In this document: positions 16,123 to 21,626 of the stretch, in pieces
Numbering within the stretch: the stretch's first letter is position 1
Layout: every line of letters begins with the position of its first letter
Source: an uncultured Eubacteriales bacterium
GTDB taxonomy: Bacteria; Bacillota; Clostridia; Lachnospirales; Bianqueaceae
Length of the DNA stretch: 64,000 nt
Reading direction: 5' to 3'
Assembly (NCBI GenBank): GCA_902796435.1
Contig: CADBPG010000005.1
Span: 148 to 64,147 of the forward strand
Made by a program: the position numbers and the translations under genes
The notes under the pieces: model-generated
Databases searched by the model: none
Told to the model about the DNA's origin: nothing
Seen by the model: only the letters and a program-made list of their open reading frames with translations

Positions 16123-16123
16123 G

Positions 16124-16150
16124 AAAGTCCTCCATGATCGGAGGACTTTT
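16124..16150. terminator. Bidirectional terminator between the convergent response regulator and TIR genes
   Basis: A 10-bp perfect stem, AAAGTCCTCC / GGAGGACTTT, with T and A runs on both sides. It fills the 30-nt gap between the two stop codons. Confidence 0.7.
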
Positions 16151-16152
16151 CA

Positions 16153-19100
16153 CTATTTATTCAGTTCTTCTTCTGCCCAGGCCTTGAGGTCGGCACGGGA
16201 GTAGTGAGGGAATGTACATAGTTTTAAGGTGTCGTTGTTCCAGAAGTAAATCTCGCCGGTCGCAGGATCATAGCCTTTGAGGTTCTCCATTTCGGAAGTC
16301 AGGACCCAATGCGTCGTATCGAGCAGGATGCCATTTGAGATAGAATCATACCTTCCAAAGAAGACTTCCATGGAACCGTCCAGGCACATGGCATGCAGGT
16401 TCTGTACCGAATCCGTATACCGTCCCAGCTGGAAAGTAGAGCGGATCTCATCCTGGATCCATTGCACAGGTTCCGCATACTTGAGTTCGAGTGTCTCGAG
16501 ATCATAAATATCGAGACGGCCGGTCTGTGTCAAGACCAACAGGTACCGGTCATCATCAGAAAAGGAGATGCAGGCAACGCCGTCTTCTTTATAGGCTTCG
16601 GATATCAGTGTGGTCGAGCCATCCTTAAGATCGTACAGGCGCAACTGATTCTGCGCATACAGAGCCATTTGAGGGCTGGTATTGCCCAAGTTAAGCACAT
16701 AGCTCTGATCCGATGAAAGTTCCTCCTGGATCTTTATGGTCTCACCAGTAAGCACATTCAGACACGTAAATGACGGTGTTTCATCCAGGGAAAACGTACC
16801 GTCGCCGTGGTCTTCCCCAGACACGCCATAATTTGCGATCCATCCGGAAGGCGATGTTAAAAATGAGGAGGTTTCAAAATCGTAGTCACGAATCAAGAAT
16901 ACATCGCTGAGATGTCTGTCGATCCAGAAATGGAGCACCCTGGCACCGATATAGCAAGAGGTGTCATAAGAAACGATCTCACCAGAGTGCAGCCGGAAAT
17001 GATCGGAAGGATAGGATAAAAGACCCAGCTCCGTGAGATCCACTTCGCAATAGTGCTCGGACCTGCCGTTACTGATCGTATAGAGATCCGGACCGTAGAG
17101 TATGTGATCCTCATCGATCAGGAACGCACCTGTAGAAAGGTCTGTATTCCTGTAGCTCTTAGTTTCCCGGGTCTCTGTGTTGAGGAGCATGTAGGTGTGA
17201 TCACTGCCGCTGATCATCATCCAGGGCGTGTCAGGAGGGCAATCGATACTGCTGGCATATGAAAGTGTGTCCGCGCCGGCAAAGATCACCTGCGCGTGCG
17301 GGTCTGTCTCGTAATGTGTGGACAGGATCCTGCCCGGATCACTTTCCGATACCGTATAGTACTGTCCTTGGGAATTCTTGGAGGAAAGATGGTCGCCTGC
17401 GCGGACCGCAAGGCAGACCTGATCCTGGTCGAACCGCGTCAAGAAGTAGTCACTGATGACAGAGCCATCGGCTTCTGGGTCCTTGAAGGTCAGTTCGATC
17501 ACATATCCATTCGCAGTAGCCAGTTCGAGGGTGCGTTTCTCTTTGTTTTTCCAGGAAATGCTCCGGACGATCCCTTCATCCAGACCATAGCTCTTGAAAA
17601 GGAAGTTGTCACTTTTGCGGAGCAGAAAAAGACGATTGTCGCTGGAGATCAGATAGAAATCAAGACCGGACAGCATATGGAAGCGTGGATACTGTCCATA
17701 AAAGCCATAGGAGGTTCCGCTGTCCTTCGTGCTGATATCATGATTGATGGTGTTGATGTCAAAATCATAACCATCCTCACCTTTTATACACTGACATGCG
17801 ATGACGCCACCGTACTGGATGGAGTGGAAGGCGATAAAGGCCTGCGACGCATCATCTGAAACATCCATGCCGTAGAAGAACTCCTGCGGATATGAGGAAC
17901 GCCCCAGCTTGGCCTTTTCCAGTGTATCCAGATCGACCACATAGAACAGATGTACTTCTTGGTCCATATCATCTGAACCTTCTTCGATCCCCGTCGCGTG
18001 TACACTGAAGAGCAGCTGCTTGTCGTTCTCTGAAAAAGCGCCACCTTGTTCAAACAAACCATCATAGTTCGTGTCTTTATCGGAGTAGGCTTCATTCGTA
18101 AGACTGATCCTTCCGTATTCGGAACCGTCCTCTGTGCTAAGGAGGATCAGATACAGGGGCGCATCAAAGGAAAAGATGTCAGGATCGTCACTGATCCGGT
18201 CCATGATGGCAAACAAGCTGCCGTCATGGGAAAGGACCTGGAAAAATATACCATAATGATGTGTATAGGACCAAAGCTCGCTTCCATCCTTGATGGAGAG
18301 ACAACGGACCGTATCATTCGTTTTATACAGGATCTTCTCACCCAGATTCTGTGTGTAGATCTGGACCCAGGGATCGTTGGAAGTATGAGACCATAGAGCA
18401 ACGCCTGTGGCACGATCGACACAGGTGATCTTTCCGAAAGAATCGACAATGAGAAGCGAGGACGTATCATCTGTGATCTTAAGATCCACGATATCCTGCT
18501 GTTGTTCATAAAAGATCTGCGTGACAGGAGAGTGCAGCTGGTACGCCCCTAAGGCATCTGCCAGCAGCAGGTCCACATGGGGATCGACCAGGGAGGGATC
18601 CTCGATGTCCATGGCCTGCACGGCATCTGTCAAGGCTCCTTTACGGTCAAACGCCTCCAGTTTCGCCGTGCCGGACTGTACCAATGCTTCAGACATGCGC
18701 TTTTCCGAAAGGGCATTCTGTTCGATGATCTGTTCCTTCTGCGCATTGATCTGCCGGTTCTTCACCAGAACGACGAAAGTAAAGGCGGTCATCAACAGTG
18801 CGGTGCCGGCCACGACGCCCATGCGTATATTGGCTTTTCTGCGGCGGTCCCGCTGCCACAGTGTGTCGAAAGAGCAGCCCAGCATGGCGGCGCAGAGGCG
18901 GATGAATTCTTTCTTGTAGGGTTGCTTCAGGTTCGCGGCTAAAGGCTCTACATTACCGGTAATATTGCCTTCTTCGTCAAAGGTATGGAGCATATAAGGA
19001 GAGAAGGAATCCTGAGGCTCGCCCTCGGCAAGAACCGCAAGCAGCTGGTCCCGGTCATGGGTCTTCAGGAAATAACGGATCTCTTCCTCGCACCAATGGG

Positions 19101-19374
19101 ACTGGGGCAGATCCGGCGTACAGATCACGATCAGAAACCGGGCATGATCAAGCGCGTCCCGGATGCTTTCTGAAAGATTCGCTGATGCCGGCAGTTCGTC
19201 CTCATCACGGAAGACCTTGCCCAGCCGTTTTCCACCGACCTGGTCACGGTATTCCGCTGGCACAGTAAAGCTTTCGATGCTTCTCTGGATCTTCTTGGCA
19301 ACAGAGGAATCCAAAGGTTTGTGCCGATAGCTGATAAAGGCGATATATTCGTTGTTTTGCTGTATAGCAGGCAT
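16153..19374 (-). CDS. TIR domain-containing single-pass membrane protein with a large C-terminal beta-propeller-like repeat region (1073 aa)
   Basis: The N-terminal TIR signature is YIAFISYRHKP ... DEDELPASANLSESIRDALDHARFLIVICTPDLPQSHWCEEEIRYFL. A basic stretch (RDRRRKANIR) precedes one TM helix (MGVVAGTALLMTAFTFVVLV). The remaining roughly 870 aa carry recurring blade-like motifs (LSHDGSLFAI, FSENDKQLLFSV, FSDDDRYLLVLTQTGRLDIYDLETLE, DRATGVALWS, IKDGSELWS). Confidence 0.85.
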   Translation of the reverse strand: MPAIQQNNEYIAFISYRHKPLDSSVAKKIQRSIESFTVPAEYRDQVGGKRLGKVFRDEDELPASANLSESIRDALDHARFLIVICTPDLPQSHWCEEEIRYFLKTHDRDQLLAVLAEGEPQDSFSPYMLHTFDEEGNITGNVEPLAANLKQPYKKEFIRLCAAMLGCSFDTLWQRDRRRKANIRMGVVAGTALLMTAFTFVVLVKNRQINAQKEQIIEQNALSEKRMSEALVQSGTAKLEAFDRKGALTDAVQAMDIEDPSLVDPHVDLLLADALGAYQLHSPVTQIFYEQQQDIVDLKITDDTSSLLIVDSFGKITCVDRATGVALWSHTSNDPWVQIYTQNLGEKILYKTNDTVRCLSIKDGSELWSYTHHYGIFFQVLSHDGSLFAIMDRISDDPDIFSFDAPLYLILLSTEDGSEYGRISLTNEAYSDKDTNYDGLFEQGGAFSENDKQLLFSVHATGIEEGSDDMDQEVHLFYVVDLDTLEKAKLGRSSYPQEFFYGMDVSDDASQAFIAFHSIQYGGVIACQCIKGEDGYDFDINTINHDISTKDSGTSYGFYGQYPRFHMLSGLDFYLISSDNRLFLLRKSDNFLFKSYGLDEGIVRSISWKNKEKRTLELATANGYVIELTFKDPEADGSVISDYFLTRFDQDQVCLAVRAGDHLSSKNSQGQYYTVSESDPGRILSTHYETDPHAQVIFAGADTLSYASSIDCPPDTPWMMISGSDHTYMLLNTETRETKSYRNTDLSTGAFLIDEDHILYGPDLYTISNGRSEHYCEVDLTELGLLSYPSDHFRLHSGEIVSYDTSCYIGARVLHFWIDRHLSDVFLIRDYDFETSSFLTSPSGWIANYGVSGEDHGDGTFSLDETPSFTCLNVLTGETIKIQEELSSDQSYVLNLGNTSPQMALYAQNQLRLYDLKDGSTTLISEAYKEDGVACISFSDDDRYLLVLTQTGRLDIYDLETLELKYAEPVQWIQDEIRSTFQLGRYTDSVQNLHAMCLDGSMEVFFGRYDSISNGILLDTTHWVLTSEMENLKGYDPATGEIYFWNNDTLKLCTFPHYSRADLKAWAEEELNK

Positions 19375-19409: not shown

Positions 19410-20288
19410 TTAGGAACGGCCCTTTTGTTTTTCTTCTAATTCCTTCAGATACTTTTCGTGTTGATCTTCTTTGAATTGTTTTCGTTTGCGGATCAGCTCG
19501 ATCTGCTGCATCCGATAATACCTGAGGAAGCGATAGATGAAGTAGACGGCACCGGCACCCAGCACCAGGGTGATGACCAGAGAGACCCAGTAGCCCAGAT
19601 AATGGTGCGTACCATTGATGATGCAGATCACCAGGCAATAGATGATCATGGAGAGCCAAAGGCAGACCTTACGATTGCGTTTGACTCCATAGAAGACCAG
19701 AAGGAGCACTGCCAGGATACATAAGAAAACGATGAACTGCGTAATGATGGTGAGCACACGTTCCAGACAAAGCATGTAGGGACCTTGTTCAGAGACGGAT
19801 TCGACCAACGCGTTGAGCAGTTCGACCGGATATTCTTTCGAAGCCAGCGTATCCAGTGTGCCCTTGTTGGCATGCTGCAGGATGGAACCGGAGGAGACCT
19901 GCATCGCGCTGTCCAGGATCATGGGCAGGGCCCAGTAACCGACCGCCATTGCGATGGTATCGTAGAGGGTCCATTTGCCGCGGCGCAGCGTCTTGGTGAT
20001 GAACCAGGCAAGGGGCGGCAGCACCAGAGCGGCCAGCAAAGCCTCAAGGAAAAGCCCCAGAGAGACCTGTTTCAGGAAGAAGGATTCATCCCCGGCTATA
20101 AGACGGATGATAGTATAAACGTTGTTGATGACAACGTAATTTACGATGAAATAGGCGGCCAGTCCGCAGATGATGGACGAAAAGGCAAAAGTGTGTCTGC
20201 GGCGCAGAAAAAAGAGGATCAGCAGAGGGAGCATCAGCTCCAGAGCGCCGACCACGTATAAAGTAATGATCGTAAATTGAGGAACCAT
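19410..20288 (-). CDS. Multi-pass integral membrane protein of unknown function, with a possible distant YhfC-like layout
   Basis: About 7 hydrophobic segments and a charged, coiled C-terminal tail (RKRKQFKEDQHEKYLKELEEKQKGRS). The AGGAGAA Shine-Dalgarno sequence precedes ATGTCCATG, so the start is 20294 or 20288. It lies 35 nt upstream of the TIR gene on the same strand. Confidence 0.7.
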   Translation of the reverse strand: MVPQFTIITLYVVGALELMLPLLILFFLRRRHTFAFSSIICGLAAYFIVNYVVINNVYTIIRLIAGDESFFLKQVSLGLFLEALLAALVLPPLAWFITKTLRRGKWTLYDTIAMAVGYWALPMILDSAMQVSSGSILQHANKGTLDTLASKEYPVELLNALVESVSEQGPYMLCLERVLTIITQFIVFLCILAVLLLVFYGVKRNRKVCLWLSMIIYCLVICIINGTHHYLGYWVSLVITLVLGAGAVYFIYRFLRYYRMQQIELIRKRKQFKEDQHEKYLKELEEKQKGRS

Positions 20289-20318
20289 GGACATTTCTCC
20301 TAAAAAAAGACTATGAAT

Positions 20319-20347
20319 ATTATACACTTAAAGCCTGCTTTTGTGAA
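20319..20347 (-). promoter_or_regulatory. Sigma-A-like promoter of the membrane-protein/TIR cassette
   Basis: On the minus strand, TTCACA - 17 nt - TATAAT, ending about 25-30 nt upstream of the first gene's start codon. Confidence 0.5.
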
Positions 20348-20459: not shown

Positions 20460-21626
20460 ATGCACAATTTAAAGATCAGTGAAGCAAAACCCATTGCAAA
20501 ACTGGCACTCATGGCCATGCCCAGTGCTACAGAATTAGCCGAAAAGGTAGACTTCCATCTGCGGAGGCTCTATAAGGATCTGTACGGAGAAGAGCAGGAA
20601 TCCTTCCTGGTCGAGGTTACGTGCCCCAGGTTCCAGAGTGGTGACGGAAAAGCTTTGATCCAGCAGTCCGTACGTGGTCTGGACTTGTTCCTTCTTACAG
20701 ATGTCGGAAACTATAATTTACAATATAAAATGTTCGGACAGGTAGTGCCCATGTCCCCGGACGATCATTACGCGGACCTGAAGCGTGCCATCGGCGCCTG
20801 CATGCGCAAGCCACACCGTATGACGGTCATCATGCCCATGCTGTATGGCGGACGTCAGCACCGCCGCAGCTACCGTGAATCCCTGGACTGCGCCATGGCT
20901 CTGCAGGAGCTGGACGCTCTGGGCGTATCCGCGATCACCACATTCGACGCACATGATCCGCGCGTACAGAATGCGATCCCGAACTCGACCTTTGACAACA
21001 TCATGCCGCATTACCAGACCATGAAGGCGCTGGTACGCAACGTGCCGGATATCATCTTCGATAAAGACCATCTGATGGTCGTCAGCCCGGATGAAGGCGC
21101 CATGGCCCGTAACGTGTTCTATGCATCTCTGCTGGGTCTGGATCTGGGTATGTACTACAAACGTCGTGATTATTCCCGCATCGTCAACGGACGCAACCCC
21201 ATCGTCGCGCACGAGTTCCTGGGCAATAATGTTGAAGGCAAGGACGTGTTCGTCTACGACGATATGATCGCTTCCGGTGAGTCCATGCTGGATCTGGCCA
21301 AAGACATGCACAGCCGTGGTGCCAAGCGTATTTTCGCCGCCTGCACCTTCGGTCTGTTCACGGAAGGTATCGACAAATTCCAGCAGGCGTACGAGCAGGG
21401 CTATCTGAACGGTGTCCTTTCTACCAACCTGACATACCGTCGTCCGGAACTGCTGGATGCACCCTGGTATTATGAAGTCGACTGCTCCAAATATATCGCA
21501 TACTACATCGCTTCTCTGAACCACGACATCTCCGTCAGCTCCATGCTGGATCCGGTCGCCAAGATCCAGGCACTCATGGAAAAGCATGAGAAAGAGCAGG
21601 CACAGCAGCTGCGCATCGAAGAATAA
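20460..21626 (+). CDS. prs: Ribose-phosphate pyrophosphokinase (PRPP synthetase), long about 390-aa form
   Basis: The N-terminal domain (ATELAEKV..., PRFQSGDGKA) and the PRPP-binding loop VFVYDDMIASGESM are present. The C-terminal extension is longer than in classical roughly 315-aa Prs. Confidence 0.8.
   Translation: MHNLKISEAKPIAKLALMAMPSATELAEKVDFHLRRLYKDLYGEEQESFLVEVTCPRFQSGDGKALIQQSVRGLDLFLLTDVGNYNLQYKMFGQVVPMSPDDHYADLKRAIGACMRKPHRMTVIMPMLYGGRQHRRSYRESLDCAMALQELDALGVSAITTFDAHDPRVQNAIPNSTFDNIMPHYQTMKALVRNVPDIIFDKDHLMVVSPDEGAMARNVFYASLLGLDLGMYYKRRDYSRIVNGRNPIVAHEFLGNNVEGKDVFVYDDMIASGESMLDLAKDMHSRGAKRIFAACTFGLFTEGIDKFQQAYEQGYLNGVLSTNLTYRRPELLDAPWYYEVDCSKYIAYYIASLNHDISVSSMLDPVAKIQALMEKHEKEQAQQLRIEE

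Follow-up and report, generated by a model that had tools for sequence, protein, structure and literature searches.

A clostridial membrane protein with a candidate enzymatic TIR domain and a predicted extracytoplasmic double beta-propeller

The stretch of DNA considered here, henceforth the window, covers 64,000 nucleotides from an uncultured Eubacteriales bacterium of the Bianqueaceae (GenBank assembly GCA_902796435.1, contig CADBPG010000005.1, positions 148 to 64,147). On its minus strand, at 16153..19374, lies an intact open reading frame (ORF) of 1073 codons. Its 1073-residue product (P0001) combines an N-terminal TIR domain with a transmembrane helix, a coiled coil and tandem beta-propellers, as judged from the reading frame, from Pfam matches to TIR_2, ThsB_TIR and PQQ_2, and from an AlphaFold2 (AF2) model. 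The gene is present once in the 2.67-Mb genome to which the window belongs. Thirty-five nucleotides upstream of its start, a second gene on the same strand (19410..20327) encodes a YhfC-like polytopic membrane protein (Pfam YhfC, PF10086, 30.5 bits); note that homologues of this protein begin at MVPQF, around nt 20288. A promoter-like site, TTCACA-17-TATAAT (20319..20347, minus strand; 11 of 12 matches, a consensus match only), sits upstream of the YhfC-like gene, and a hairpin terminator with an 11-pair stem (16123..16150) lies between the end of the TIR gene and a convergent LytTR regulator gene. The TIR gene and the YhfC-like gene likely share an operon. Divergent from them runs a gene for a long-form PRPP synthetase of 388 residues (20460-21626, plus strand), which holds the same position in a same-genus genome that has no TIR gene there (G003, see below) and is therefore not TIR-specific.

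The original prediction concerned nt 18970-19353, that is, residues 8-135 of the N-terminal domain, and held that this is a TIR domain that keeps the catalytic-glutamate context SHWCEEEI. Both strings on which it was built recur letter for letter in the translation, YIAFISYRH at residues 10-18 and DEDELPASANLSESIRDALDHARFLIVICTPDLPQSHWCEEEIRYFL at residues 57-103, and the codons read from the sequence are exact: TGG for W94 (19093-19095), TGC for C95 (19090-19092), GAG for E96 (19087-19089), GAA for E97 (19084-19086) and GAG for E98 (19081-19083, CTC on the plus strand). We place the TIR domain together with its conserved juxtamembrane helices at residues 10-182 (18829..19347, minus strand; predicted cytoplasmic), an assignment that draws on Pfam, AF2, Foldseek and sequence identity. 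The match to Pfam TIR_2 (PF13676) scores 38.7 bits against a cut-off of 28 (E 1.6e-9), and that to ThsB_TIR scores 26.3 bits against a cut-off of 21.2. When an AF2 model of residues 1-182 (pLDDT 85.3, pTM 0.82) was compared with the PDB by Foldseek, the 42 best matches were TIR domains or the closely related SEFIR domains (E 7.5e-5 to about 1e-3), among them C. elegans TIR-1, SARM1, Roq1, TLR1, the SPARTA TIR and MyD88; the first non-TIR match, a flavodoxin-like protein, comes at rank 43. Because the Pfam scores, the Foldseek matches of the model and the PDB matches of a family profile (described next) agree, the domain is, on sequence and model evidence, a genuine TIR domain and no chance motif.

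E98 had further been placed at the catalytic position, and the alignments bear this out. A phmmer search of the PDB sequences with residues 1-182 returned Roq1 as the top match in an ungapped pairing, with V54...SHWCEEEI of the query opposite T42...STWCLEEL of Roq1 and E98 opposite Roq1 E86. Counting onward from Roq1 residue 42 gives K50, R51, G52 and K53 for the BB-loop, in agreement with the numbering of the Roq1 paper, which identifies E86 as the catalytic glutamate and reports that the hypersensitive response is lost when it is mutated (10.1101/2020.08.13.246413). When 21 TIR domains of the family were combined into a profile, it found Roq1 (3e-7), L6 (2e-6) and AtTIR (4e-5) in the PDB, and also AbTir, PdTIR, Cat1, SNC1, RUN1, RPV1 and RPP1; the W-C-x-x-E column is in register in all of these alignments. 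One of the three glutamates E96-E98 thus stands where the catalytic residue would be expected, and we annotate the E98 codon (19081..19083, minus strand) as the predicted catalytic glutamate, based on its alignment to Roq1 E86 and its invariance. Two further codons on the same strand belong to the putative pocket. W94 (19093..19095) lies four residues before E98, completing a WxxxE motif, and aligns with the tryptophan of the WC..E motif in Roq1, L6 and AtTIR. S15 (19330..19332), in the beta-A strand (FISYRH), is the likely counterpart of the pocket serines SNC1 S26 and SARM1 S567, a correspondence that we infer from S15 of YIAFISYRH standing opposite AtTIR YDVFLSFRG in what is a weak alignment only. 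The role of a conserved serine beside the catalytic glutamate is described in 10.1101/2025.04.09.647920.

How strongly is this position constrained? A search of 5.8 billion proteins recovered at least 364 homologues that match the protein in length and architecture. In an alignment of 121 homologues, R17, D57 and E60 are found in 121/121 each, S15 in 120/121, and W94, C95 and E98 in 120/120 each. The adjacent glutamates behave differently: E96 is kept in 105/121, and the E97 position is occupied by Q in 63, A in 34 and E in 17. Family genes from other genomes, distant subfamilies included, show the same contrast: E98, like W94 and S15, is kept in 93 of 95, and the two genes without E98 are short ORF fragments. 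Across the family, L, A, N, M, R, G, H, T or Q can stand at position 96 in place of glutamate, and Q, A, R, K or H at position 97. We therefore reject E96 and E97 as candidates for the catalytic residue, given that both vary freely across the family and E98 does not. Read from these alignments, the run of three glutamates is a peculiarity of the clade, with constraint on E98 only. The family itself is very large: when the TIR profile was used in an exhaustive HMMER search, 2,879 clusters (at 50% identity) reached E <= 1e-30 and 11,285 such clusters reached E <= 1e-10, the best matches being mostly 1,000-1,150 residues long. Its members come mostly from uncultured rumen and gut Clostridia, and in literature searches for a TIR domain with RyR and a K+ channel, and for a membrane-anchored TIR domain with WD40, we found no account of them.

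The remainder of the protein suggests what the TIR domain is attached to. In the full-length AF2 model (pLDDT 87.3, pTM 0.74), the TIR domain (residues 10-180) is followed by a hydrophobic helix (about 185-204), a long helix (205-240), a small helical unit reaching to residue 275, and beta-strands from 282 to 1055. The hydrophobic helix is predicted to be the single transmembrane helix (18763..18822, minus strand); it comes after the segment RDRRRKANIR and its Kyte-Doolittle hydropathy peaks at 2.23 at residue 186. The long helix, a predicted coiled coil just outside the membrane (18655..18762, minus strand), is modelled as helix over residues 205-240 with pLDDT 80-97, and the predicted extracytoplasmic tandem beta-propeller region (residues 282-1055; 16210..18531, minus strand) is assigned from the AF2 strands, Foldseek, and Pfam matches to PQQ_2 and, weakly, WD40. 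Foldseek matches this region best to double WD40 propellers (UTP proteins, EML-like proteins, IFT-A and Apaf-1). As a guide to function, Foldseek with the full-length model is uninformative, being dominated by eukaryotic double WD40 proteins.

Orientation can be predicted from charge. Across 72 family members, the 15 residues before the transmembrane helix carry on average 5.15 lysines and arginines, versus 2.54 in the 15 residues after it; a second hydrophobic window occurs in only 1 of 72 aligned family proteins, and the 1073-residue protein has no N-terminal signal peptide. Because of this positive-inside bias, the single transmembrane helix and the lack of a signal peptide, we predict a type-II single-pass membrane protein with the TIR domain in the cytoplasm and the propellers outside the cell. 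The parts evolve at very different rates. Mean identity among distant family members is 71% for the TIR domain, 49% for the transmembrane and coiled-coil part and 25% for each propeller half; judged by these identities, a conserved output module is joined to a fast-diverging sensor. Full-length TIR-transmembrane-propeller paralogues also occur in tandem (L007:3752-10470, and likewise L059, L075 and L082), and three to four family copies are present in G021, G006 and the metagenome-assembled genome RUG11393. Such tandem and multiple copies suggest diversification of the sensor part.

Which genes accompany TIR genes of this family elsewhere? We clustered ORFs in an unbiased way across 78 genome loci together with loci from the European Nucleotide Archive (ENA), and counted partners at the 49 loci where each flank extends for 2 kb or more. 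A channel gene pair adjoins the TIR gene in 13/49, a DHH/DHHA1 phosphoesterase in 9/49 and a YhfC-like gene in 3/49; the other 24/49 have no recurrent neighbour. The channel pair abuts or overlaps the TIR gene, often with stop and start codons overlapping, an arrangement of translational coupling. Its first gene encodes a protein of about 515 residues with a KcsA-like pore and a TVGYGD filter (E 2e-14 to KcsA) that ends in a RyR domain (Pfam RyR 30.6 bits; E about 1e-13 to RyR1 repeats). The second encodes a multi-pass paralogue of about 625 residues that has no Pfam match and shares, weakly, only the C-terminal RyR-like region. Channel-module loci include L022:4565-7995, L004:2602-6004, L007:290-3755, L010, L013, L025, L027, L028, L040, L043 and L047. 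The DHH/DHHA1 gene adjoins the TIR gene of a more distant subfamily (L049-L054, L062, L065, L067-L069, L072, L074; for example L051:1780-3339), preceding it on the same strand by 13-136 nt.

Phage proteins that carry a RyR domain bind 2'cADPR and 3'cADPR or cleave them (PMC13232231), and type X Thoeris, in which a TIR gene shares an operon with an ion-channel gene, has been validated as a defence against phage (10.64898/2025.12.03.692087). Given that RyR domains bind cADPR isomers and that either a RyR-domain K+ channel or a DHH phosphoesterase abuts the gene in relatives, these partners support, by association, a TIR domain that produces a signal. A separate, independent set of 41 relatives contains just one true channel orthologue (in G013), and here too a gene of the TIR family is found on the same strand, about 3.4 kb away. 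A different K+-channel-pore ORF of about 336 residues is found about 1.6 kb (G019:C89:11357-13975) and about 4.4 kb (G006:C2:24421-29956) from divergent TIR paralogues. In the distant DHH-associated subfamily, the TIR gene is often followed by a gene for a FecR / InlB-B-repeat surface protein of 1,400-2,000 residues (L051:7004-11329) or, alternatively, for an AMP-binding enzyme fusion (L049:11717-14242).

In the window, the sole operon partner is the YhfC-like membrane protein. The TIR family is patchily distributed, occurring in 10/41 related genomes and 6/24 genera, with three to four paralogues in some. The block retains full synteny in taxa with TIR proteins 54-69% identical to that of the window. 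The same-genus genome G003 shows identical synteny (L094; G003:C81, 6115-7111) for prs, the YhfC-like gene, the LytTR regulator, the kinase and pfkA; at this syntenic site there is no TIR gene, and the hairpin stands alone between the YhfC-like gene, which is 47% identical to the window copy, and the regulator gene. In a further genome (G002), prs lies at a contig edge, so that presence or absence of the TIR gene is undecidable at that position. Because G003 retains both the synteny and the YhfC-like gene without the TIR gene, the latter is a presence/absence polymorphism on which the YhfC-like gene does not depend. We considered whether the cassette might be a recent 6.3-kb insert. This is not supported, since G003 keeps the kinase/regulator pair and the YhfC-like gene and is without the TIR gene only; the block synteny in taxa with 54-69% identical proteins also opposes it.

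The YhfC-like gene adjoins the TIR gene in L002, L003 and L009, and lies on its other side in the distant loci L005 and L006. In an alignment at 29% identity, which makes the comparison tentative, the window protein appears to be without the EExxR and histidine motifs that its homologue at L005:9262-10047 retains. These results weaken the idea that it is an obligatory partner or an activating protease: it persists without the TIR gene in G003, the two motifs seem to be missing in the 29% identity alignment, and only 3 of the 49 loci show the link. Going by its sequence, the YhfC-like protein may be a non-catalytic membrane partner.

The same observations bear on whether the TIR gene does anything at all. 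One might suppose that it was left behind by an accessory insertion and is now decaying or without function in this organism, and the patchy distribution, its lack at the syntenic site in G003 and the failure to detect an effector partner in the window genome would all fit. Decay would not be expected, however, to leave 1073 codons intact, all residues of the putative catalytic pocket in place and a strong promoter-like site ahead of the likely operon, nor a 98%-identical copy in other samples besides the fully syntenic orthologues. We regard this explanation as very unlikely indeed.

More serious is the question of whether the domain is an enzyme, as the original prediction thought likely, or a pure scaffold. 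Imagine a TIR domain that served only protein-protein assembly, either homotypic or with the YhfC-like protein or a channel, and did not cleave NAD+: E98, W94 and S15 would then be structural or binding residues. Several observations are compatible with this and weigh against an enzymatic role. The glutamate is more than 90% conserved in TLR1/2/6/10 (PMC7075850), and TLR2 and IL-1R9/10 possess it without showing NADase activity, the residue pointing out of the pocket, as reported in a study in which the TLR4 TIR domain makes cADPR (10.64898/2026.04.20.719644). Since these receptors keep the glutamate without activity, the SxWCxxE(L/I) motif, which had been taken as a sign of activity, is not diagnostic; the motif is necessary and indicative, not sufficient. 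The flexible BB-loop glycine, defined by Roq1 G52 and SARM1 G601, is missing as well. In the corresponding region, DEDELPASANL (residues 57-67; 19174..19206, minus strand), the Roq1 alignment puts Ser64 at its position (S in 108, T in 8, A in 4 and G in 1 of the 121 homologues), Pro62 is conserved in 118/121, and pLDDT falls to 61 within the block. The SARM1 G601P mutant is nearly inactive, and the BB-loop glycine is needed for the active conformation in both SARM1 and Roq1 (10.1101/2020.08.13.246413); with Ser64 in place of the glycine and Pro62 conserved, the domain may assemble differently from plant and SARM1 TIR domains. Furthermore, Foldseek finds nearly equal matches among scaffold TIR domains (TLR1, MyD88, TRIF) and among enzymatic ones, TM-scores of the 1-182 model to solved TIR structures reach only about 0.45-0.55, and the C-terminal half of the domain (residues 115-182) is divergent. 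Genomic context adds to these doubts: the neighbours in the window are housekeeping genes (prs, lexA, rplU, rpmA, obg, pfkA and ppk1) plus the LytTR two-component pair; PADLOC reports a weak SAVED_TIR match of 26.5 bits only, with no defence model that fits and no match for the partners; and a search of the window genome for a RyR domain and a channel orthologue found neither, so that the linkage is borrowed from relatives.

Set against a scaffold role are four lines of evidence. The best sequence matches in the PDB are enzymatic (Roq1, L6, AtTIR, AbTir, PdTIR and Cat1); the pocket set S15, W94, E98 and D57 is invariant over thousands of clusters, with E96 and E97 drifting next to it; the glutamate is needed for NADase function in all prokaryotic TIR domains examined (PMC7282519); and RyR partners, a cADPR-binding fold, or phosphoesterase partners suit a small-molecule product. 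Having weighed both sides, we consider a scaffold-only TIR domain unlikely. The enzymatic part of the original prediction thus stands as a likelihood, carried by alignment, conservation and the partners of relatives; its reliance on the motif does not, and the serine in the BB-loop counts against it. On sequence grounds, E98 is most probably a catalytic-type glutamate and the domain an NAD+-processing enzyme.

An enzyme need not be an NAD+ hydrolase or cyclase, of course. The closest sequence matches are plant TNL TIR domains, and plant TIR domains are reported to act as 2',3'-cAMP/cGMP synthetases (10.1101/2021.11.09.467869); type X and XI Thoeris TIR proteins produce none of the known molecules (10.64898/2025.12.03.692087). 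The domain might, then, use another substrate or chemistry, as a 2',3'-cNMP synthetase, a nuclease acting on nucleic acids, or an enzyme of base exchange or of conjugates such as His-ADPR. We saw no nucleic-acid-binding feature, however, a membrane-tethered TIR domain would be poorly placed to reach the chromosome, and the RyR link in relatives points to ligands of the ADPR type. This alternative, which overlaps with NAD+ cleavage in that the same catalytic glutamate would be used, seems to us quite improbable.

The explanation that we judge best overall, and probable as a whole, is that the TIR domain is the cytoplasmic enzyme of a type-II receptor with propellers outside, and that clustering activates NAD+ cleavage. 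It could work as follows. The variable C-terminal part of about 870 residues, coiled coil and two beta-propellers, would sense an external or cell-envelope cue; clustering through the transmembrane and coiled-coil region would unite TIR domains into composite active sites; and in these E98, W94 of the same helix and S15 of beta-A would together form the NAD+-processing site typical of enzymatic TIR domains, with E96 and E97 incidental. In many relatives the product would probably be of the cADPR type, either read by the RyR-domain K+ channel of the operon or turned over by the DHH phosphoesterase. In the organism of the window, the output might be NAD+ depletion itself or a signal for another receiver, possibly involving the co-transcribed YhfC-like protein. 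Catalysis, product, activation by clustering and biological role are all put forward here as readings of sequence.

A catalytic glutamate retained in a bacterial TIR domain would, on its own, be ordinary and expected. What matters is the setting: an apparently enzymatic TIR domain wired to an extracellular, fast-evolving double propeller, in a very large and uncharacterised clostridial family. To our knowledge, known bacterial TIR systems sense intracellular events, and a TIR enzyme that signals from the outside in would be a new mode of input. One can go further and imagine the family as a cell-surface pathway, in which the hypervariable double propeller senses a cue, the TIR domain makes a cADPR-type messenger, a RyR-domain K+ channel is gated by it and, in the other branch, the DHH enzyme ends the signal. 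We offer this as a doubtful though conceivable extension. Were it true, the pathway would be the first TIR pathway to be triggered from outside the cell and a prokaryotic counterpart, possibly the forerunner, of eukaryotic cADPR and ryanodine-receptor signalling, and the window gene, as a member without a channel, would kill by depleting NAD+ or rely on a different receiver. Coupling to a RyR-domain K+ channel would also open a testable route to an old question, namely whether molecules of the cADPR type act on RyR modules and, if so, in what way.

How does the protein compare with TIR systems that are already understood? The best PDB sequence matches, as noted, are the NAD+-cleaving TIR domains of plant TNL proteins (Roq1, L6, RUN1, RPP1 and AtTIR), with which the window domain shares F-x-D-(D/E)-x-E-L at the start of the BB region and S-x-W-C-x-x-E-(L/I) on helix alpha-C. 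Differences are considerable all the same: identity is about 20% and the TM-score about 0.45-0.5, BB-loop residues K50, R51, G52 and K53 of Roq1 correspond to P-A-S-A, and plant TNLs oligomerise through their NB-ARC-LRR part whereas the platform of the window protein is a membrane receptor. SARM1 and C. elegans TIR-1, whose activity depends on oligomerisation, are the top structural matches. They have in common with the window domain a beta-A strand of the form FISYR(H/R) and a glutamate four residues after the tryptophan, and the catalytic position on alpha-C is occupied by SARM1 E642, Roq1 E86, RUN1 E100 and window E98 alike. SARM1, however, assembles as an octameric ring with ARM and SAM domains, has no membrane span or ectodomain, and carries G601 where the window protein has Ser64.

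With Toll-like receptors the window protein shares a layout: a single membrane span separates a large ligand-binding domain outside the cell (predicted as such in our case) from a TIR domain in the cytoplasm. Toll-like receptors are type I, with a C-terminal TIR domain, an LRR solenoid and adaptor TIR proteins; the window protein is predicted to be type II, with an N-terminal TIR domain, beta-propellers and no adaptor TIR proteins. Topology and ectodomain being different, it is not a Toll-like receptor, and the resemblance is one of layout, not of whole-protein homology.

Closer in logic is type X Thoeris, in which a ThsB TIR protein acts with an ion-channel effector (10.64898/2025.12.03.692087). 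Coupling of a TIR protein to a channel is seen also in relatives of the window gene, the window TIR domain passes the ThsB_TIR cut-off, and the logic implied in both cases is one of a membrane effector opened or closed by a signal that the TIR protein makes. Unlike the small cytoplasmic ThsB, the TIR protein of this family is a membrane receptor of about 1,100 residues with a predicted outside sensor, and the channel of relatives, unlike that of type X Thoeris, carries a RyR domain and is accompanied by a long paralogue. The window locus has no channel, does not lie in a defence island and matches no PADLOC model; without an effector or a defence context at its locus, the window protein is not a Thoeris member. 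A last parallel concerns the partner in relatives rather than the window gene: phage RyDEP and RyR Repeat12 proteins (PMC13232231) bind 2'cADPR and 3'cADPR, and the same Pfam RyR domain ends the relatives' K+ channel, whose ligand binding is putative. Set beside all of these, the receptor family is an uncharacterised variant of enzymatic TIR signalling.

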